DNA from: Nitrosopumilus sp.
Lineage (GTDB): Archaea; Thermoproteota; Nitrososphaeria; Nitrososphaerales; Nitrosopumilaceae
DNA: 64,000 nucleotides
Direction of reading: 5' to 3'
Assembly: GCA_965205675.1 (NCBI GenBank)
Contig: OZ242186.1
Span: 1,440,001-1,504,000, forward strand
The position numbers and the translations under genes are program-made. Numbering within the stretch: position 1 is the first letter of the stretch; each line of letters begins with the position of its first letter. Shown here one piece after another: positions 26,834 to 40,460 of this stretch. The notes beneath the pieces are model-generated. The model worked only from the letters and a program-made list of their open reading frames with translations, was not told where the DNA came from and made no database searches.

Positions 26834-29800
26834 TCATTTTGCAATTCTAATGACGCGCTCTTCTATGAGAGTCTCAATGAGTTCGGTGAATTCCATATCA
26901 GTGAGATTGCCATCAGTGTAGTTACCTACATCATTAAGCAGCCACTGTGGATAGGTATCGATATCTTGCAGGCTTTTTGATTTTTCCCAGTCCTCATAGA
27001 CAATATAGTGGTTATCAATTAGATAGTCAATGGAATTAAAGAAGAATATGTCACGTGCAGGACTTCCATTCCACAATTTTAGATCAGACTTTATCCACAA
27101 AGGTATAGGATCAGTATTTTTTTGAACAGTCTTATCTGCTATGGGTCTTGGATCATCTTCTATTGCATTTAGAATATCAAGTGAACTCTGCTGTTCGCTA
27201 GTATACCCTGTACGATGATGGTATTTCTTTTCAACAAAGTCGTCACTTAGCGTTATGGTCTGAGTAAATGTGTCTCGTTTGTCTTTTGCTGTAACTGCAA
27301 AAGAGTCTGCATCAGAATTAATTGTGGCAGAGTATACGAGGTGCTGTTTCTCTGCTTCATTTGCAGAGGACTGTGGTGACTGCTCAGATGTCAGAGACAA
27401 TGCTGCCAGGTGCACGCCTGCATCAGTGCTGACAGAGACAGATGCTGGTCCGCATGTAGAGAGCAGTTCCACATTGACAGTGCTAGTTTCCCTGTCATAT
27501 CCTATACTGAATATTCGAAGCGAGATGCCCATTCCAAATCCCTTAGAGTCACAACTGGATTTGTTGATATCTTTGTGTAAGAATTCAGCGTGGGACTCTT
27601 CAGATACTGCCACGTTGATTCTGCCGCTACCGCCGCTAGAGGATGTGGGGGGTGGGGGAAGAGTGCCAGTACTAGTAATGAGGTTATTCTCTGAGGATAT
27701 AATGTTATTTTGTGCAGTGTCTCGTATGGCACCTGCTGCAATATCCAGATGCAAGTCATCACTGTTACTATTAGCGATGTAAGAGATTATCTCTTCTCGC
27801 TGCTGCTCAGTTACAGTTATTTCAAGTGTATCAGAGTTGGGACTAGCATGTATGGCACCAGCAAGGGATACAGACATGCTGCTACCTGTAGTGCCAGATA
27901 TTGTAAAGCTATCCACGGTGATATTATCAGGGTCTATTGTTTCTGAAAAGGTTACAGTTAGCAGACCTGTTACTTTGTGTATGACACCTGAGACAAAGGT
28001 TGGCTCAATCTGATCATCGACCATTTCAAGTGGGTTGTCTTCTGATGCTGCAATGCCATTTTCTGAAGTATCCTGTACGGCACCTTCTGCAATGTCTAGA
28101 TGCAGGTTATCACTAGTACCGGTGTAACCTATTACTCGCTGTCGTTGTTGCTCATTTAGAGTTATTGTAATGGTATGAGCAGAAATAGGGTCGATGGCAG
28201 ATGCTGTACCTGCAAGGGATACAGGTATGCTGTTACCTACAGTGTCAGATATTGTAAAGTTACCTACTATGATACTATCAGGGGATATTGTCTCTGAGAA
28301 ATTTACAGTCAGTACACCTGTGCCCTCTTGTACTACAGCAGAGACAAAGGTTGGCAGAATTGTATCACCAACACTTGTAATAGGATCATCTTCAGAAGCT
28401 GCAACATCATTTTCTGAAGTGTCCTGTACGGCGCCTTCTGCAATGTCTAGATGCAAGTTTGTGTCATTGTTATTAACAGTACCAGTGTAAGCTATTACTT
28501 GCTGTCGTTGTGTTTCAGTCAGAGTTATTGTAAGAGTATCAGTAGAGGTAGAATCAATGTCGGGTGTTGCACCTGCAAGGGACACTGGTGGTAGTGCGTT
28601 GCCAGTTACAGTATCAGATATTGTAAAGCTATCCACTGTAACATCAGAGTCAATTGCCTCTGAGAAGGTTACAGAGAGTACACCTGTGCCCTCTTGTACT
28701 ACAGCAGAAACAAATGTTGGCAGAATTGTATCAACAACCATTGTAATCTCGTTATCCACAGAAGCTGCAATGTTATTCTGTACAGTGTCTCGCACGGCAC
28801 CTGCTGCAATGTCAAGATGCAAGTTACCACCAGTGCCGGTGTAACCTATTACTTGCTGTCGCTGTGCCTCAGTCAGGGTTATTGTAATGGTGTCAGGGGA
28901 GCCAGGGTCAACGGCGGTCGCTAGACCTGCAAGGGATACGGGTGGTGATGCGTTGCTAGATATGGTATCAGATATTGTAAATCCGTCCACTGTGATATGA
29001 CTAGGGTCAATTGTCTCTGAGAAATTTACAGTCAGTACACCTGTGCCCTCTTGCATCACACCAGAGACAAATGTTGGCAGAATTGTATCAACAACCATTG
29101 TAATCTCGTTATCCACAGAAGCTGCAATGTTATTCTGTACAGTGTCTCGCACGGCACCTGCTGCAATGTCAAGATGCAAGTTACCACCAGTGCCGGTGTA
29201 ACCTATTACTTGCTGTCGCTGTGCCTCAGTCAGGGTTATTGTAATGGTGTCAGGGGAGCCAGGGTCAACGGCGGTCGCTAGACCTGCAAGGGATACGGGT
29301 GGTGATGCGTTGCTAGATATGGTATCAGATATTGTAAATCCGTTCACTGTGATATGACTAGGGTCAATTGTCTCTGAGAAATTTACAGTCAGTACACCTG
29401 TGCCCTCTTGCATCACACCAGAGACAAATGTTGGCAGAATTGTATCAACAACCATTGTAATCTCGTTATCCACAGAAGCTACAATGTTATTCTGTGCAGT
29501 GTCTCGCACGGCACCTGCTGCAATGTCAAGATGCAAGTTACCACCAGTGCCGGTGTAACCTATTACTTGCTGTCGCTGTGCCTCAGTCAGGGTTATTGTA
29601 ATGGTGTCAGGGGAGCCAGGGTCAACGGCGGTCGCTAGACCTGCAAGGGATACGGGTGGTGATGCGTTGCTAGATATGGTATCAGATATTGTAAATCCGT
29701 CCACTGTGATATGACTAGGGTCAATTGTCTCTGAGAAATTTACAGTCAGTACACCTGTGCCCTCTTGCATCACACCAGAGACAAATGTTGGCGGGATTGC

Positions 29801-32800
29801 ATCATTAGTTCTTATAATAAGATTATCCTCAGAAGCTGCAATGTTATTCTGTACAGTGTCTCGCACGGCACCTGCTGCAATGTCAAGATGCAATGAACCG
29901 GTATAAGGTAATATTAGCTGTCGCTGTGCCTCAGTCAGGGTTATTGTAAGGGTATCAGGAGCGCCAAAAATAATGGCGGGCGTTGCACCTGCAAGGGATA
30001 CGGAGAGACGTGCCTCAATGCCGCTCTCCAAATCATCAGTTATTGTAAATCTTTCCACCATGATATTACTAGGGTCAATTGTCTCTGAGAAGGTTACAAA
30101 GAGGACGCCTGCGCCCTCTTGTAGCACACCAAAGACAAATGTTGGCAGAATTGTATCAACAACCATTGTAATCTCGTTATCCACAGAAGCTGCAATGTTA
30201 TTCTGTACAGTGTCTCGCACGGCACCTGCTGCAATGTCAAGATGCAAGTTACCACCAGTGCCGGTGTAACCTATTACTTGCTGTCGCTGTGCCTCAGTCA
30301 GGGTTATTGTAATGGTGTCAGGGGAGCCAGGGTCAACGGCGGTCGCTAGACCTGCAAGGGATACGGGTGGTGATGCGTTGCTAGATATGGTATCAGATAT
30401 TGTAAATCTTTCCACCATGATATTACTAGGGTCAATTGTCTCTGAGAAATTTACAGTCAGTACACCTGTGCCCTCTTGCATCACACCAGAGACAAATGTT
30501 GGCAGAATTGTATCAACAACCATTGTAATCTCGTTATCCACAGAAGCTACAATGTTATTCTGTGCAGTGTCTCGCACGGCACCTGCTGCAATGTCAAGAT
30601 GCAAGTTACCACCAGTGCCGGTGTAACCTATTACTTGCTGTCGCTGTGCCTCAGTCAGGGTTATTGTAATGGTGTCAGGGGAGCCAGGGTCAACGGCGGT
30701 CGCTAGACCTGCAAGGGATACGGGTGGTGATGCGTTGCTAGATATGGTATCAGATATTGTAAATCCGTTCACTGTGATATGACTAGGGTCAATTGTCTCT
30801 GAGAAATTTACAGTCAGTACACCTGTGCCCTCTTGCATCACACCAGAGACAAATGTTGGCAGAATTGTATCAACAACCATTGTAATCTCGTTATCCACAG
30901 AAGCTGCAATGTTATTCTGTACAGTGTCTCGCACGGCACCTGCTGCAATGTCAAGATGCAAGTTACCACCAGTGCCGGTGTAACCTATTACTTGCTGTCG
31001 CTGTGCCTCAGTCAGGGTTATTGTAATGGTGTCAGGGGAGCCAGGGTCAACGGCGGTCGCTAGACCTGCAAGGGATACGGGTGGTGATGCGTTGCTAGAT
31101 ATGGTATCAGATATTGTAAATCTTTCCACCATGATATTACTAGGGTCAATTGTCTCTGAGAAATTTACAGTCAGTACACCTGTGCCCTCTTGCATCACAC
31201 CAGAGACAAATGTTGGCAGAATTGTATCAACAACCATTGTAATCTCGTTATCCACAGAAGCTACAATGTTATTCTGTGCAGTGTCTCGCACGGCACCTGC
31301 TGCAATGTCAAGATGCAAGTTACCACCAGTGCCGGTGTAACCTATTACTTGCTGTCGCTGTGCCTCAGTCAGGGTTATTGTAATGGTGTCAGGGGAGCCA
31401 GGGTCAACGGCGGTCGCTAGACCTGCAAGGGATACGGGTGGTGATGCGTTGCTAGATATGGTATCAGATATTGTAAATCCGTTCACTGTGATATGACTAG
31501 GGTCAATTGTCTCTGAGAAATTTACAGTCAGTACACCTGTGCCCTCTTGCATCACACCAGAGACAAATGTTGGAGCTGTAGTGTCAAGGGTTACAGTAAC
31601 AGGATCAGAGAGTGCAGACTTATTACCTGCGGTATCAGTAGCTATAACAGTCAATTCGTTATTGCCTTGGACTAGCGTAAATGAGTCAAATGACCAAGTA
31701 CCGTCAGATGCAGCTGTTGTGCTTCTACCAGGTACTTCATTAGAGTTTCTTAATAACTGGACTGTGGAGCCAGGCTCAGCAGTACCTGAAATGTCAATTG
31801 ACTCTGTGTTGACAGTTGAAGTAGATGGCGACGTAATGATTGGTATAATATTCACAGCTACGGAGATGGTCTGAGATACAGTACTTTGTCCATCAGATAC
31901 AATAACATCAAAGGTGTGTGTACCGGCTTGTAATTCAGTTGGAGTCCATGAGAATGCGCCTGTGTTACTATTGATGGTAGCACCTTCAGGTTCATCATTC
32001 AGAGAATATACAAGTACATCAGCATCATCAGCGTCACTGGCTGATACAATAAAGGTTAGCGGTATATTGGCAATTGCTGATTGCGGAGTTGTAATGGGAC
32101 TGATTACCGGCACTGCATTGAGATCTCCCACAGTTAGCGTAAAGCTATCAGATGCAGAGTCGTCAGAATCTGACCCACTGACTATAAAATTAAATTCTTT
32201 GAGAAACTCAGAATCACTAGTAATTACATCAAATGGAGGATTAGATATAATCTGATCACCATTAATGGTCAACCAATCAGGAACTGCTTCGTTATCAGTT
32301 GTAGTTAATGTAAATGTTGGATTTGTAAAACCAGTGTGTGAGATATTAATAATGGACTGGATACCTTCAAATGAAAAAGAATCTTCTACAAATACAAATG
32401 GTGATACAATATCCACAGCTACGGAGATGGTCTGAGATACAGTACTTTGTCCATCAGATACAAAAACATCAAAGGTGTGTGTACCGGCTTGTAATTCAGT
32501 TGGAGTCCATGAGAATGCGCCTGTGTTACTATTGATGGTAGCACCTTCAGGTTCATCATTCAGAGAATATACAAGTACATCAGCATCATCAGCGTCACTG
32601 GCTGATACAATAAAGGTTAGCGGTATATTGGCAATTGCTGATTGCGGAGTTGTAATGGGACTGATTACCGGCACTGCATTGAGATCTCCCACAGTTAGCG
32701 TAAAGCTATCAGATGCAGAGTCGTCAGAATCTGACCCACTGACTATAAAATTAAATTCTTTGAGAAACTCAGAATCACTAGTAATTACATCAAATGGAGG

Positions 32801-33761: not shown

Positions 33762-35245
33762 GTAACTGTCTAGAGTTTTGAAGTAAAATCTCCAAGATAT
33801 TCTAAAGAATAATCATGAAAGTTTAATCCTCGTAATCTGCATGTCTCCTTTATACTCATCAGTATCTTATGAGAATCAGCACCATGAATGGTTCTATGAC
33901 CGTTTGTAATTTTACGAATTATCACATTTGGTCTGATTGCCCTCTCTGCTGTGTTATTGTGTGAATCAGTTCCAGTAATTAGGAATGTAAAAAGCATTTC
34001 TCTCTCACGTTTCAATCTTTTTACAAACCTGATACAGTTTTTCTCTGTGTATTTTTTTGATATGATGTGATTAATTCTCCTTTCAAGATTCTTTTTTGCA
34101 TGGATTCTTTCTGATTCTGATTTTATTTTTGCCACACCATGAGAGTCATAAATTATTTTCTTGAGATTCTTGGCAAATGGTGCAAATTCTGGTCCGGGAT
34201 TCTTGTGATTAATGGTATCATTAACCTCTCTGAGATAATGGATGTGACATTTCTGGTGAGTGCTTCCAACATGGTTCCATGCAGGGTACGAATCACTTGT
34301 AATGTTGCCATCATATCCCTTGAGAATTCTCTTGGGAACATCCATTGAACGTGATTTGTCAATCTCGTAAATTACAGTCCATTTACTCACAAATGCCCAC
34401 AACCAGTGGTTCTGGCCATCTACCCTCCAACTTGTCTCATCACCATGTATGTTTAGATCTTCTTTTAACTCCACAATCATTGTATCATATCTGCTCCCAA
34501 ATGCTTTTGATACTATTGATACTGCATGATTAATTGCAGATTCTGTAATGTGCAGTGAGAAGAGCATCTGCAAAAGATGAGATATTTTACCATACGATAA
34601 TCCGATAGTTTTTAGTGATGTGATTAGCACCATGAGCCTAATTCCAAACCTTTCATTTGACAGTACAGTGTGAATGTTACCCGAGATTTGTTTTTTGCAG
34701 TTTGTGCAGTATCGTCTAACTATCGTATATTTTGTCACAACTGCTTTTGCAGGAATGATGTCTTCTACTATTCTGGTGTATGAATCAGTTGGTTCTGAGA
34801 GTGATTTGCCACATGTGTTGCACTCTTTTTGGTCAACTGTAATGGCATCATCAATGTGTGCTGTGCATTTCCAAAGACGCACATAATGGATTTTCTTCTT
34901 TTTGGTCAACTGTAATGGCATCATCAATGTGTGCCCGTCTGCTTCTGCTTTTTCTAGGATGTCTTGATGTTTTCTTCTTTTTTGCAGTTTCAGTCTTGTT
35001 TGGTTTTGCTTTGATATTTCTTGCAACAAGTGTAGACACTGTTTGTTTTAGTTCTGCAATTTCTCTGTGTAGTGATTCAATATCTTTGCGTAACTGACGG
35101 TTTTCTTGCTCCAGCGAGTGACATCTGTTACGATAATATTCCAGCTCATCATATACTGACAATTGTATATTGTAATTTGTCACTGATCAGAAAAGATATA
35201 GATAAAAAATATTAAAGAAAGTACTTCAAAACTCTAGACAGTTAC
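33762..35245 (-). mobile_element. IS66 family element, copy 2 (1484 bp), transposase frameshifted by a 73-bp insertion
   Basis: Same 24-bp IRs; 73 bp longer than copies 1 and 3; ORF split into 34851..35183 and 33770..35029. Confidence 0.95.
34824..34934. repeat. Repeat-spacer-repeat unit: 38-bp exact duplication around a 35-bp unique insert
   Basis: TCTTTTTGGTCAACTGTAATGGCATCATCAATGTGTGC at 34824-34861 and 34897-34934; single in the other IS66 copies. Confidence 0.95.
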
Positions 35246-35251
35246 AAAAAA

Positions 35252-35412
35252 TGTTGTATCCTAGAATCGGCTCGTCTCTTATTTCACATCATATTCTTCC
35301 CCTGTCTGCTCATCCATAACACCCTTGTTTCCCTTTTCTGGCATCTTTTTCACATTGCTTTTGCAGGTGTCCTTAGATTGTCCCAGTCAAGTAACATATG
35401 CGGTTTTATATA
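35252..35412 (-). mobile_element. Degenerate IS481 3' remnant
   Basis: Diverged copy of 33438-33600. Confidence 0.7.
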
Positions 35413-35549
35413 ATTACTTGATAATAATAATCAGACAAATAATCGAGATTGATGAGAAGGCCAAGTGGAAAACTATTATTCAAAATACTAGTCTACACAA
35501 GGAAAATTCAATTTGAATAAGATCTGTATTTCATATAACCCCTCGAAGA

Positions 35550-35897
35550 TTACATAGAATCGGATTTCTTTTTACTTTTCTGAATCAAAATTTTCTTTAT
35601 TCTAGAAATTGTAGGATAACTGTAACTCCTCCTACGATAATTTGCAATCATAATTTTCCAATTTTTTAATCTCCATTGAGCTTGTTCGGCAGTAACAGAA
35701 TGAACTTCTTTCTGAATGATACTTTTCCTGCCTACTTTTAGAGTTCCAGCATCTTTTGCAGACCATCTATTTTTTGCAAATTTAAGACCAGAAAGGATCT
35801 CAGACACAGGCATTTCTTTGAAATAGGCTTTCAATCTTTTTAATTCTGCATCAGACGGCTTTTTAGAAATTAGTAATTCGATAGTAGACTTTGCCAC
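35550..35897 (-). CDS. Basic hypothetical protein
   Basis: 115-aa Lys/Arg-rich ORF. Confidence 0.65.
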   Translation of the reverse strand: MAKSTIELLISKKPSDAELKRLKAYFKEMPVSEILSGLKFAKNRWSAKDAGTLKVGRKSIIQKEVHSVTAEQAQWRLKNWKIMIANYRRRSYSYPTISRIKKILIQKSKKKSDSM

Positions 35898-36089
35898 AAT
35901 AAACAGTTCGGGTTATTGCTTAAGAGAATCTTGCTAAAGAATCATTTACTAATTGGTTCTAGTCATGTTTATTTATCAAAAATTGTCATTTTAGGCATGA
36001 GATATGCAATAATCTATGAAAAAATTAATAATTTTGATGTATTGGAGAGTATTGGGATGAGTTGTATGTATGGGAAATTGATATTTGTG

Positions 36090-36403
36090 AAACATTTGAG
36101 CAGGAACTGGTAAAACTAGAGATAAAACACATCATGGCAAGAGTAAACCATCCACAGATAAACGGCAAGCTGGAAAGATTCCACGATGAGATTCAAAGAA
36201 AACAGAAATGGTTTGAGACTGTAGATGAGATGGTCCACTGGTATAACTATATCAAACCACACATGTAACTTGACTGGGATTAATTTTGAGACACCAGCAA
36301 AGACTGCAAGAAAGATGCCAGAGAAAAGAACAAGAGTTGTTGATGAGCAGACAGGAGAAGAGTACGATGCAGAATAAGGGGCGAACTGATTTTGGGAAAT
36401 ATC
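36090..36403 (+). mobile_element. Degenerate IS481 3' remnant
   Basis: ARVNHPQINGKLERFH...YNYIKPHM*; homologous to 33438-33761. Confidence 0.75.
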
Positions 36404-36513
36404 AATTGAAATTCTCAAATATTTCTTTGTAAAGATAATTATTCATTACTTTAGAAATAACAAAAATAATTATTTCCTAGAATGTGTAATTTGATGTACT
36501 TTCCCATCTGCTG

Positions 36514-36691
36514 ATGATTGAAGAGATTTGGAGACAGTGCAAACATGCTAATGTTGAATCAGATTTTTATGAATCTATTCATGAAATGAGGCATACAGTT
36601 ATGGAATATTTTAGAACCCATAAATTTGATTTGAATATGTATCAGTATTTTGCAAGAACAGTGAATTGAAAAGACTTATGATCTGGGGTAT
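36514..36691 (+). mobile_element. 3' remnant of the IS630 element found intact at 42575
   Basis: Near-identical to ~43487-43665, including the right IR. Confidence 0.85.
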
Positions 36692-36740
36692 AAGTATGGT
36701 GAAAATATACTTTTAATAGTTGAATTTAAGATAATTCGTA

Positions 36741-37280
36741 TTGATAGATAAGATTGATGAATTGATAATTTCTGCCCTCTCTCAAAATTCAAAACAAAAA
36801 GTTTTTGAGATTTGGGATTTTTTGAAGGGATTTAATTATGATTTAACAGAAGATGAAATTGAATCAAGAATATCAAAACTTGAAGAAGATAAAATTATTA
36901 AAGGATACACAATAACTGTAGATGCAAAGAAAATTTTACACAAGGTCATACGCGTAGATCTTGTCACGTTTAGGATATCTCAAGCACTTCCAAAAAGAGT
37001 AGATGGATTAAAAAAATATCTCAATGATGCGCCATTTGTTTTATTCTCAGGTAAAACGCGTGGGGGGTATGATTGGATTACAGTAAAATCATTTTTATCA
37101 AACGATATGGCGGATGAAGAAAGTGATATTTATCGAAATTTGTTTGGAGATATTATTCAAACATATGAGGTATATGATTTTGTTCCACAGACAGATGCAT
37201 CAATTTATGCATTAACTTATACAGAAATTGAATATAAAAAATTTCTCAAAGAATGGACACCTCCATTTATTGGATCATAA
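36741..37280 (+). CDS. Lrp/AsnC-family transcriptional regulator
   Basis: DKIDELII..L..NS...RI.KLEE..IIKGYT HTH plus RAM-like domain. Confidence 0.8.
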   Translation: MIDKIDELIISALSQNSKQKVFEIWDFLKGFNYDLTEDEIESRISKLEEDKIIKGYTITVDAKKILHKVIRVDLVTFRISQALPKRVDGLKKYLNDAPFVLFSGKTRGGYDWITVKSFLSNDMADEESDIYRNLFGDIIQTYEVYDFVPQTDASIYALTYTEIEYKKFLKEWTPPFIGS

Positions 37281-37281
37281 A

Positions 37282-38118
37282 TTATAACTTTGTTTTTTTA
37301 AAGTGAATTGTCTCATCTATCATTGAATGGGTTTGTAATCTCAAACTCATCAAAAATTTAATCACCTCTGCTCTTTGTTTTGGATTAATTCCATGTGCAT
37401 CTTCTATCAGGTCATCAATTCTTGAAAGCGTAATTTTTAGAGATAAATGAGTTTTTTTTATCAAATTAAGTGCCTTTGAATTTTTGTTAGTAACTTGATT
37501 GTTATTTTTAATCGTTTTTTTGATGACACGGATTTGTTTTACAGTCATCTTTTTGTTGACTATCTCATCTACTAGATCACTATTTTGTGATCCATTAATT
37601 GAAGTTAATTCCAATGCTTGACTTACACTCAAATCATTTTGAAGGATTTTTTCTTGTATATTATTTGAAAGTTTTAAGAGCTGCATTCGATGAGACACAT
37701 ATTCTTCACTCTTTCCAATTTTTTGAGCTAAATCTCTTACTGCTCCCCATCCGTATTCATTTACATATTTTTGGTAAGCTTCTGCCTCCTCTATCGGATC
37801 CATAGATTTTCTCTGAATGTTTTCAGTTAATTGAATCTCATATGCCTGTTTGTCTGTCAAGTCTCGAATTTTACTTGGAATGAATCTCCAACGTAGGGAT
37901 CTACATGCTACATATCTACGATGTCCTGCAACTACCTCAAACCCATGATCAAGAGGTCTAATTACAATTGGTTGCAATAGCCCATGTGTCTTTATGCTAG
38001 ATTTTAGATTTGCTAGTTCTTGAGAATTTGAAGCTGCCATATACCTGACAGGGGATTTTGATGGTCGAATCATTCGAATTTCAATGGGCTCTACAATTGA
38101 ATTATCAATTATTTCCAT
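37282..38118 (-). CDS. ParB/Spo0J-like protein
   Basis: L..SI..HGLLQPI, VVAGHRR, ENIQR, HTH (LAQKIGKS..YVS). Confidence 0.9.
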   Translation of the reverse strand: MEIIDNSIVEPIEIRMIRPSKSPVRYMAASNSQELANLKSSIKTHGLLQPIVIRPLDHGFEVVAGHRRYVACRSLRWRFIPSKIRDLTDKQAYEIQLTENIQRKSMDPIEEAEAYQKYVNEYGWGAVRDLAQKIGKSEEYVSHRMQLLKLSNNIQEKILQNDLSVSQALELTSINGSQNSDLVDEIVNKKMTVKQIRVIKKTIKNNNQVTNKNSKALNLIKKTHLSLKITLSRIDDLIEDAHGINPKQRAEVIKFLMSLRLQTHSMIDETIHFKKTKL

Positions 38119-38537
38119 TTGGAATCCTCATATTCTAAATTGATAAAATGAAAATAGTATTTAACTTTTAATCAAAAAATTACAATAATTTTTAATTGCT
38201 GTTAAATTAATTTTATAATAACTAAAATTTCATAAAATCATCATATAGCGACGATCAAAAGTTCGTAAACATCTTTACAGTATTTCTAAAGATACAATTT
38301 GCAACATCAATCTTGAATCTTGTCATTCTAAAATATTTTGACACTGTATCATTTATCGTAAACATTGTATAATATTCTGAAACCTGCAACGCATACTTGC
38401 TTATCTTCCAGCATTGTTCTATCATGTTCTTCAAGTACGGCGATCCTTTTGGCAACCATATTAGTTTGACATCTCTATTGTTTGCAAGATATTCTTTTAC
38501 TTTTTTTGATTTGTGAACTGATGCTCAGTATAGCATG

Positions 38538-38632
38538 ATTGCAATCTTGCCATATTTCCAGTGCGACCTTGGAGCATGAAGTAGCTCACGCCAACTTTGA
38601 CAATTGCAATCTTGCCATATTTCCAGTGCGAC
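38538..38632. repeat. Repeat-spacer-repeat unit: 30-bp exact duplication around a 35-bp unique insert
   Basis: ATTGCAATCTTGCCATATTTCCAGTGCGAC at 38538-38567 and 38603-38632. Confidence 0.95.
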
Positions 38633-38939
38633 TCCTTTAGATATTCTACAAATCTTCCAGCATTGAATCTGTCATAAATTTTAAACAGCTGATTGTTATT
38701 TTCCATAATTGTTCCATACTGCCAAACTTTCATGATTGCCTAGGTATGAAAGAAATATTCTCTTGGCAACTGGTGACTGGGTATTTTTTCCTGTCTTTGT
38801 ATCCCTTAGAAAAAATGCCTCATCAGCCATTGCAATGACAAATCCTTCTTTTTTAGGCGTAAAATTCTCTTTCTGATGCGTTGCTGCCAGCTTTTCACAG
38901 CAGATACGCTTGCATGGTGGATGTGATATTTTTGTGCAG

Positions 38940-39081
38940 TAGATGTCTTGCGTAATTATTTCTAGGCGTGAATTTTGCTGCAGGATTTTTCAAATTGGTT
39001 GAGAAATTTGAATTTTCAGGTATGAATTCTGTTAAAATACAAAATTTGAGAAAAAATCTCTATAATTACGCAAGAGGTCTA
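38940..39081. mobile_element. MITE (~140 bp) nested in the IS630 relic
   Basis: IRs TAGA(TG/CC)TCTTGCGTAATTA; same end at 439. Confidence 0.7.
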
Positions 39082-39352
39082 GTTTTTGCAGATATCCTAC
39101 TGGTGCATTATCTTTCTGATGTGAGTAATGTGAAATTTCACTCCAGTGGAATAAGATATTGCTTGCTGTAGCATCACAGGCGTAAACAAAGTTAGCATTG
39201 CCTTTGAGATGATACAGTCCGTTTTCTTCTTTGAAATTGTTCTTGGTCTTCCACTCCTTGGATGGTCGTAGAGGCCATCGATTTCAAAACAATTCACTCA
39301 TTTTCGTACCCAGATTGTGCAGTGTCTTTGCAGTGTGTTCTATTTCCTTACC

Positions 39353-39462
39353 ATCTTTTAGAATCATCAATACTGCCAAGCATTCTTACCTCTAGTCAGA
39401 ATTTCTTGATGTCGTTGGATTAATTATCTTTTAGAATCATCAATACTGCCAAGCATTCTTAC
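39353..39462. repeat. Repeat-spacer-repeat unit: 37-bp exact duplication around a 36-bp unique insert
   Basis: ATCTTTTAGAATCATCAATACTGCCAAGCATTCTTAC at 39353-39389 and 39426-39462. Confidence 0.95.
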
Positions 39463-39650
39463 TGCAACTTTTGAATTTTTTGTAATGCTGCTTTCAAGGG
39501 ATTCTAACTTCCATGTATTTTGTTGGGTTGACTGATCAAAAGGTTTTTTGTTTTGGAATTATTTAGTTCACGAACTTTGTCTTTTCGCTATACAATACTA
39601 TTGATTTGACATGAGGATCATTCTAATACATCATTTCTCAAAGAATCCTG

Positions 39651-40460
39651 ATGAGAAATCCGACTGCAATAATCGGACTGCTGGTTTTGAGCGTAGCATT
39701 GCTTACTATGACAATATACGCAATTGACACTCAGATAATTACTATCGGAGATAAATCATCTGCTGTTCCCATAAAGACCACGTTAATCAATGATTCATTT
39801 AGCACCACACTTGATTCTTGGACATTTCAAGAAAATCCCAACACTGTAGCAAATCAGAGATATTGTAACACGCAAAATACTAATGTATACAGTCTGACTC
39901 ATAATTCAAATCATGATGGTTCTGCACTAATTGATAATTCAAATCATGATGGTTCTGCACTAATTGATAATTCAAATACCTGTTGGTTTGGTACAGTAGG
40001 CGGTGTAAAGTCATTTACAGTTCCAACAGTTCATGATGGCAGCACATTGGAAATGACTCTTGATTATCGAAGTGTTGCCGGTTTAATACCCACAACTGAT
40101 GCGCCTAGTGCCATTTTTACATTGGAAAGGACTCTTGATTATCGAAGTGATGCTGGAGCAATTTCTGCAGGAGTTGGCCATGTAAATAACATGTCTGTCT
40201 TGATTACTGATTCTGATGGTAATATCCTAAAAGAAGAAATATTGTATTCTGGTGCACGCAGCTCGGACTTGAGGGATACTGGCTGGCAAGAAAAGACAAT
40301 TATCGTAAACTCGATAAACGCTACAAAATGCCCATGTGATGTATTTATTTATACTGCGGATTCCTGGCTTGCAGAATGGCAAAAAAAGATTTACTTTGAC
40401 AATGTCAATGTAACACTATCTCATCCAATATCTGATATTGATTACATTTCCTTTCCGTGA
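39651..40460 (+). CDS. Secreted or membrane-anchored protein of unknown function, beta-rich
   Basis: N-terminal hydrophobic helix; ends IYFDNVNV like lectin/jelly-roll domains; carries two in-frame internal duplications. Confidence 0.7.
   Translation: MRNPTAIIGLLVLSVALLTMTIYAIDTQIITIGDKSSAVPIKTTLINDSFSTTLDSWTFQENPNTVANQRYCNTQNTNVYSLTHNSNHDGSALIDNSNHDGSALIDNSNTCWFGTVGGVKSFTVPTVHDGSTLEMTLDYRSVAGLIPTTDAPSAIFTLERTLDYRSDAGAISAGVGHVNNMSVLITDSDGNILKEEILYSGARSSDLRDTGWQEKTIIVNSINATKCPCDVFIYTADSWLAEWQKKIYFDNVNVTLSHPISDIDYISFP
39901..39977 (+). repeat. 33-bp in-frame tandem duplication
   Basis: ATAATTCAAATCATGATGGTTCTGCACTAATTG x2 plus a partial copy (NSNHDGSALID x2). Confidence 0.95.
40044..40156. 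repeat. Older repeat-spacer-repeat unit: 38-bp duplication (3 mismatches) around a 37-bp insert, in frame
   Basis: ACATTGGAAATGACTCTTGATTATCGAAGTGTTGCCGG vs ACATTGGAAAGGACTCTTGATTATCGAAGTGATGCTGG; period 75 bp. Confidence 0.85.

Follow-up and report, generated by a model that had tools for sequence, protein, structure and literature searches.

A 65-bp insertion in a decayed transposase gene of the archaeon Nitrosopumilus sp. is very probably the product of an off-target (ectopic) spacer integration carried out by the resident type I-B Cas4-Cas1-Cas2 proteins, an interpretation drawn from the footprint left in the DNA and from published biochemistry. The window in which it lies is a stretch of 64,000 nucleotides (positions 1,440,001 to 1,504,000 of the forward strand of contig OZ242186.1); plain coordinates refer to this window, and those preceded by C1 to the whole genome. 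The segment spanning positions 38538-38567 is found again, without a single change, at 38603-38632, with 65 bp from start to start, and 35 bp of DNA of spacer length (38568-38602) sit between both 30-mers. Chance cannot produce an exact 30-bp repeat at such spacing. The length of the duplication equals that of the repeat in the CRISPR array of this genome (30 nt), the insert falls within the range of its spacers (34-37 nt), cas1 and cas2 are intact, an empty form of the site exists, and the target resembles the repeat. We infer that Cas1-Cas2 was the agent and that the inserted DNA has its source outside this genome. In the proposed course of events, Cas1-Cas2 together with Cas4 would have captured a 35-nt prespacer and attacked a repeat-like stretch of the dead transposase gene by strand transfer at two staggered positions, 30 bp from each other. 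Gap repair would then have copied the 30 bp onto both sides of the new spacer, and the outcome would be a unit with the geometry of a repeat-spacer-repeat (30+35+30) built of transposon DNA.

A dead transposase gene and its empty copies

The host of the scar is a decayed IS630-like element of the DDE_3 family (38244-39560, minus strand), which is represented elsewhere in the genome by about 10 other copies at 85-93% identity (blastn). This relic keeps short open frames only and is broken by the 65-bp scar, by a 142-bp MITE and by a second scar. At C1:701265-702263 a copy of the element is intact; its product of 332 aa, in which DDE_3 and helix-turn-helix domains are present, is taken for an IS630-like transposase. 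An earlier note on this stretch, prepared from the letters of the DNA, had described an exact 30-bp duplication inside an IS630 relic, the peptide SHWKYGKIAI encoded by it and an insert with a GC content above that of its surroundings. All of this was recovered: the duplication is present at the two segments named above, the peptide is found in the minus-strand frame 38497-38733, and the GC content of the insert is 0.49, compared to 0.32 for the flanking 1 kb. Both copies of the target duplication are assigned to the minus strand; that of the first copy (denoted here as the pseudo-repeat) is in register with the resident CRISPR repeat, and the second copy is the place where a 65-bp alignment gap, described below, comes to its end. 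The insert, or stray spacer, is given no strand. The 30-mer has two exact copies in the genome, both in the relic, and eight further copies with 1-3 mismatches, all of them single and all in paralogues of the element. The scar is most likely functionless and merely frameshifts an already dead gene. Its orientation is that of the sense strand of the transposase gene, so that a hypothetical transcript would have the polarity of a crRNA precursor.

The state of the locus before the event can be read from the other copies of the element. A blastn comparison across the whole genome showed that nine of the nine paralogous copies covering the site (at about 591k, 701k, 873k, 879k, 1034k, 1049k, 1066k, 1098k and 1816k) are without the 65 bp, and in all nine the alignment passes from just before the insert directly to the second 30-mer, so that each has one 30-mer and no trace of the 35 bp. 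Similarly, the alignment to six other copies presents one clean gap of 65 columns, with all six empty. These empty sites are paralogues within the genome rather than the orthologous site of a sister strain. The earlier note had made its reading depend on whether intact IS630 copies also bear the extra 65 bp, and none of the copies compared by either method does. A joint that skips the 65 bp, encountered in runs X1-X4, whose contigs are fragmented by repeats, was considered as an empty allele and rejected, as the contig carrying it has 9 differences over 75 nt and corresponds to another copy of the element.

The relic has received further insertions. The MITE-like element (38940-39081, no strand assigned) is 142 bp in length, has 20-nt inverted ends and is found in about 30 copies in the genome at 94-99% identity; it is missing from the other IS630-like copies and is separate from the CRISPR-type scar. 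The second scar (39353-39462, minus strand) belongs to a longer class, and has 36 bp of inserted DNA (39390-39425) lying between the two copies of a 37-bp duplication (39353-39389 and 39426-39462). In blastn, the alignments to other copies of the element close over it and overlap by 37 bp, and a contig of 103 nt found in runs X1 and X2 spans positions 39360-39462 with no differences. A third scar of the window, also of the long class, is located in an insertion sequence of another family (34824-34934, minus strand), where a 38-bp duplication (34824-34861 and 34897-34934) encloses an insert of 35 bp (34862-34896). All eight other copies of that element are without the 73 bp, and their identity to it amounts to 99-100% over the 1062 bp that precede the scar and to 93-100% after it. 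The existence of near-identical empty copies (99-100%) indicates that the event giving rise to the third scar was very recent. The insertion-sequence family itself (33800-35257), with its eight near-identical other copies, points to a very recent burst of transposition.

Other repeated features were observed in the window. A long tandem array occupies positions 27895-31573, where a unit of 357 bp is repeated 10.3 times with 88% identity. In addition, a frame of 269 aa (39651-40460) contains in-frame tandem repeats at 39901-39977 (33-bp unit, 2.3 copies) and at 40042-40160 (75-bp period).

The resident CRISPR-Cas system, the target and the insert

The earlier note had made its proposal subject to the existence of a CRISPR system with 30-bp repeats in the genome or in relatives. 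Such a system was found in this genome, with cas genes adjacent. The array, at C1:698253-699002, contains 12 repeats of 30 nt and 11 spacers of 34-37 nt (mean 35.4), and is adjoined by cas4, cas1 and cas2, which are intact and all above the Pfam cut-off. The Cas1 protein, the one Cas1 counted in the genome, was recognized with E=1e-93 and its gene has no stops. Beyond the intact IS630-like copy, and on the opposite strand, lie cas3 (887 aa), cas5, cas7, cas8b (so assigned from the position of a gene of 562 aa) and cas6, each as an open frame. From its content and gene order, without the use of a classifier, this complete cas set is type I-B.

The locus has some peculiarities. Between C1:699158 and C1:709487, the block cas6-cas8b-cas7-cas5-cas3 is inverted with respect to cas4-cas1-cas2, and the intact IS630-like copy stands at the junction. 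All eight cas genes are colinear and on one strand in the relative G014, which indicates that it is the effector block that became inverted in the present genome; this rearrangement might have altered the expression of the cas genes. The array holds only 11 spacers, compared with 57-112 in relatives. A free-standing mini-array was also observed at C1:9808-9905, on the opposite strand and 690 kb away from the cas locus. It consists of a 38-nt spacer flanked by two repeats, one with 28 and the other with 26 of 30 positions identical to the array repeat, and may be what is left of an old array or, alternatively, an ectopic unit that has aged at a site very similar to the repeat. No Rfam family matched the array locus or the relic, and neither the true repeat nor the pseudo-repeat folded better than their shuffled versions.

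The earlier note had proposed that the insertion site mimics the cognate repeat, and had left the comparison with the repeat of the organism to be made. Read on the minus strand, the duplicated 30-mer shares 19 of its 30 positions with the resident repeat, the best offset being exactly 0, and such a score is reached by 0.11% of random genomic sites (p=0.0011, displacements of up to 3 nt and both strands being allowed). The shared positions include the first two bases (G and T) and seven of the last eight nucleotides. In such systems, the last eight nucleotides of the repeat form the 5' handle of the crRNA. The repeat of Pyrococcus furiosus is of the same terminal type, with a G-T start and an end of the ATTGAAA type. 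GTCGC, which the earlier note had quoted as a typical terminus, is not a terminus of the repeat of this organism; at their termini, the duplicated segment and this repeat have only a G-T start and an ATTG-AAT end in common. Overall resemblance is no predictor of integration, given that better-matching sites were left untouched. At least eight other copies of the element contain a pseudo-repeat that is equally good or better, and outside the two arrays there are 13 sites with 21-22 of 30 positions identical to the repeat; none of these bears an insertion.

As for the insert, the 35-bp sequence occurs once in the window (none of 100 shuffled versions found a match with up to 3 mismatches), and no second copy exists in the 2,011,361-bp single-contig genome. 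It had no match with up to 3 mismatches in 150 congeners, no match among metagenome contigs in an exact search (exact matching being insensitive) and no match by blastn in a plasmid collection. The idea, advanced in the earlier note, that it might be foreign DNA recognizable in viral databases did not find support there, since no exact match was obtained in IMG/VR, in a scan that is insensitive, and no blastn match among phages. The inserts of three other units equally lacked an exact match in IMG/VR in the same insensitive type of scan. A foreign origin is compatible with the data; as neither a protospacer nor a PAM was found for the focal insert, its capture from an invader is something that we infer. 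The search for a PAM in three self-derived inserts of other events yielded flanks that were inconsistent across cases, and a fourth self-derived candidate (G014, 255647) was discarded as a locus matching itself. No bias in the end nucleotides of spacers that might serve to orient the inserts was detected in the 374, 370 and 74 spacers of relatives. The inserts of the different units are mutually unrelated in sequence, and their mean GC content is 0.40, compared to 0.337 for the genome.

Units of two sizes in the genome and in the genus

The genome was scanned for other units of the same design in two ways. An exact scan for isolated repeat pairs of at least 20 bp at spacings up to 1000, with heuristic filters for complexity and tandem arrays, kept 37 pairs, 20 of them at periods 60-79. 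These 20 comprise six rows of the true array, one unrelated pair (C1:380323, 21+57, not counted as an event) and 13 units of the scar design. A second scan, which tolerated mismatches (at least 25 of 28 identical, periods 40-160) and applied the same kind of heuristic filters, gave no pairs at periods 40-61, 22 at periods 62-75 and one at periods 76-107 (period 81). Among these 22 are six array rows, the mini-array at C1:9808, one coding tandem repeat (position 40042 of the window, period 75, not counted as an event) and 14 units.

Four of the units, denoted class I, have a 30-bp duplication and a period of 64-67: C1:98273 (30 with one mismatch, +34), C1:199961 (30+37), C1:439378 (30+35) and C1:1478538 (30+35), the last being the focal scar. 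Nine others, denoted class II, have duplications of 36-39 bp and periods of 70-73, and two of them are inside the window (C1:1474824, 38+35, and C1:1479353, 37+36). The remaining members of this class are located at C1:541166 (37+35), C1:732792 (37 with one mismatch, +35), C1:1247936 (36 with two mismatches, +36), C1:1505435 (36+35), C1:1599699 (38+34), C1:1704607 (39+33) and C1:1774762 (38+32). One unit, at C1:30670 (23+39), fits neither class. A stretch of 31 kb in which dead mobile elements abound holds four of the 14 scars (34824-39462 of the window, plus C1:1505435), and three of these are crowded into 4.7 kb. Insertions may be tolerated in this stretch, or it may be a local hot spot; the presence of three scars within 4.7 kb in dead insertion sequences fits their retention where insertions cost nothing.

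All four class I sites align with the resident repeat at offset 0, with 18, 15, 18 and 19 identities out of 30 (p=0.004, 0.13, 0.004 and 0.001, so that the site with 15 is not significant by itself). All of them also have G as the first base and a TTG-N-AAT-like end. When the ends of the four sites were tested jointly against those of the resident repeat, allowing two orientations and small offsets and giving equal freedom to the simulations, z values of 4.9-6.2 were obtained, and none of 3000 simulations scored as high. The profile of the inward-reading half-site motif showed its sole peak at the cut (mean 5.75 out of 9, compared with a background of 2.99; z=5.4). The three further class I footprints, which show the same target preference as the focal scar, are assigned to the same process.

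Class II behaves differently. Over their whole length its sites have no significant similarity to the resident repeat, nor a significant one to repeats of 36 or 37 nt; the class has no fixed half-site motif, and a displaced motif peak is absent at any offset. Instead, a G-T start lies within 0-2 nt of one end in eight of the nine sites (score 17 out of 18, reached in none of 4000 simulations). A sequence that occurs five times at C1:1337331-1344897 is reproduced exactly by the insert of the C1:1774762 unit, as expected of a captured prespacer. The source of this insert continues with two bases that also open the duplication, indicating that the event was probably 36+34, counted from G-T. Three repeat families exist among the congeners: one of 30 nt with a period of 65-68, one of 36 nt with a period of 72-75 that adjoins a 555-aa Cas1 fusion, and one of 37 nt with a period of 72-74 and its own Cas1. 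At their ends, class II sites are similar to the ends of the 37-nt repeat (z=4.5; none of 3000 simulations, and none of 2000 in a separate test) and show no such similarity to those of the 36-nt repeat (z about 1). Class II is in keeping with the systems of 36/37-nt repeats that exist in the genus and are missing from the present genome: a search for a second CRISPR system, in which at least 24-25 matches to the 36- or 37-nt repeats were required, gave no array-like remnants, and the 18-nt core of the 37-nt repeat has no matches in this genome. A 37-nt module may have been lost very recently, the 30-nt integrase may work at sites of the 37-nt type, or another process may be responsible.

The same scan script was applied to 800 kb from each of three relatives (G014, G017 and G007), samples that are partial and come from related genomes, and which therefore are not independent tests. 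G014, where the 30-, 36- and 37-nt systems are all present, yielded 11 clean units in the sampled region (C1:100001-900000 of that genome), with periods of 72-74, duplications of 36-38 and inserts of 35-37. At least four units of G014 (24523, 672618, 255647 and 277456) are in a repeat element of roughly 0.85 kb, which has more than 25 copies, most of them empty at that place. One target of G014 was used twice, independently and with different inserts; one insert exactly reproduces a segment of the cas3 gene of that genome, and another copies a second locus. The ends of the G014 sites resemble the 37-nt repeat (z=2.7, p=0.0055). G017, whose one Cas1 is of the 30-nt type and in which two repeats of the 37-nt type are left over, gave two clean and two looser units. 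In G007, Cas1 was not found and 13 orphan repeats of the 37-nt type persist; it provided one unit with a mismatch and one doubtful unit. These data show that a class of roughly 72 nt is common in the genus and tends to accompany present or former 36/37-nt systems. A search of 61 genomes of the genus also revealed, in several congeners, weaker Cas1 homologues, with open frames of 409-442 aa and E values of about 1e-55 to 1e-62, sometimes in three copies per genome and absent from the present one. Cas1 of the casposon type is known in this group.

The long class is also where an alternative to off-target integration finds most of its arguments. An insertion-plus-duplication process independent of CRISPR could have made the focal unit, the likeness to the repeat being then coincidental, and we consider this improbable. 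It is favored by the existence of nine units of period 70-73 in a genome without a 36/37-nt repeat system, by similar units in the three congeners sampled, including the one where Cas1 was not found, and by a half-site profile of the long class that lacks a fixed target motif. The nine class II units are not obviously explained by the 30-nt system, meaning that another process operates or operated, and this process could in principle also make units of 65 nt. Counter-evidence to our preferred reading also comes from a 31+35 unit of G014, whose target matches the 30-nt repeat of that genome at just 7 of 30 positions. However, from an unrelated process one would not expect four 30-bp units in exact register with the resident repeat, and the lengths of the inserts are those of spacers. 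Moreover, the orphan arrays of G007 are of the 37-nt family and imply that this genome once had such a system, and the ends of the long class are like those of the 37-nt repeat of the genus in two genomes.

An even smaller probability is given to an accident of replication or repair, in which a staggered break or slippage would have duplicated the 30 bp, with filler DNA captured between the copies. Break repair can yield duplications with filler DNA, and the failure to find a protospacer for the insert suits an accident as well. Nevertheless, accidents are expected to produce a broad range of sizes, and what was observed are two narrow bands, at 64-67 and 70-73, with one unit at 62, none at periods 40-61 and one pair at 76-107; an accident would also leave the register with the repeat unexplained. 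The last explanation to be weighed is that a piece of a true CRISPR array was carried into the transposon, the 30-mers of the unit being real repeats. The repeat-spacer-repeat geometry and the repeat-like ends would agree with it, but the 30-mer is ordinary transposase coding sequence, single and at the same place in every other copy of the element, and it departs from the true repeat at 11 of 30 positions, features that are equally at odds with a functional array. This origin, to which we concede practically no probability, was ruled out by the alignment with the six other copies.

Off-target integration by the type I-B proteins therefore stays as the preferred explanation for the focal scar. 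A much broader proposal, which is offered tentatively and which we regard as rather unlikely, is that off-target integration constitutes a frequent mutational force in the genus and works with two discrete rulers, the long class having three alternative sources. Either the type I-B integrase possesses a second mode of about 37 bp, triggered by sites sharing only the leader-proximal G-T end, or an adaptation module for 37-nt repeats acted very recently and has since been lost completely, or about 72 nt are added by machinery that is yet to be described. If the first of these were true, the ruler for repeat length would reside in the target DNA and not in the protein, and the scars would represent raw material for new arrays with new repeat lengths. 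One scar is in the sense of a transposase promoter and has a near-perfect 8-nt crRNA handle sequence.

Relation to known systems

The process itself is already known, both in vivo in E. coli and in vitro with Pyrococcus proteins. In E. coli, off-target integration gave rise to "neo-CRISPR" loci (Nivala, Shipman and Church 2018, Nat Microbiol 3:310, as cited in passages of 10.1101/148544, PMC6698737 and PMC7054753); according to the same passages, that work dealt with a type I-E system and over-produced Cas1-Cas2, and for two other species offered no more than circumstantial evidence. The units described here share with those loci, as they are presented there, an insert of spacer length, a duplication of non-CRISPR DNA with the length of a repeat and the presence of Cas1-Cas2 in the genome. 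They differ in that they belong to a natural archaeal type I-B system at native expression, and in that four repeat-like events are accompanied by nine of another size, several of them with paralogous empty sites.

The closest biochemical parallel is Pyrococcus furiosus, whose Cas1-Cas2 attacks in vitro paired non-CRISPR sites that are 30-31 bp apart, with a preference for G (Grainy et al. 2019, in passages of PMC6698737), the off-target sites resembling the repeat at its borders. The repeat of 30 nt, the paired sites at 30-31 bp, the G at the attacked base and the resemblance at the borders are thus common to both cases. In contrast with that assay, carried out on plasmids, the products are here fixed in the chromosome, and the class of 36-39 bp has no counterpart reported for Pyrococcus in the passages of PMC6698737. 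A second archaeal system, that of Haloarcula hispanica, is like the present one of type I-B and has a repeat of 30 bp; in the parts of PMC4872114 (Wang et al. 2016) that concern it, motifs in the DNA are described as setting the length of the duplication. The aberrant sizes given there are 29-33 bp, obtained in engineered arrays in which motifs had been shifted, as opposed to the 36-39 bp found here. Finally, ectopic acquisition inside arrays has been described for Streptococcus thermophilus and S. mutans (passages of PMC7999890, PMC5338259 and PMC8265633). Those cases have in common with ours that integration occurs away from the leader-proximal repeat, and are distinguished by the target, which in them is a true repeat of the array and here is non-CRISPR DNA.

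No paper on such footprints in these archaea was found in literature searches that were aimed at other questions. Natural evidence of Cas1-Cas2 acting on non-CRISPR DNA is sparse, and this genome offers a clean case with built-in controls. The 14 scars make it possible to read the rules of off-target integration; in the 30-bp class, a site opens with G and closes with TTG-N-AAT. Besides disrupting genes, the integrase can seed repeat-spacer-repeat units, which is the proposed first step in the birth of an array. The class of 36-39 bp, being common to congeners, converts the question of what sets repeat length into one that is testable on natural substrates. Compared with the systems reviewed above, what is new is a natural archaeal case in which a single genome combines an intact integrase with the cognate repeat and with many paralogous sites that are empty, together with a set of 14 scars and a second, unexplained duplication length.
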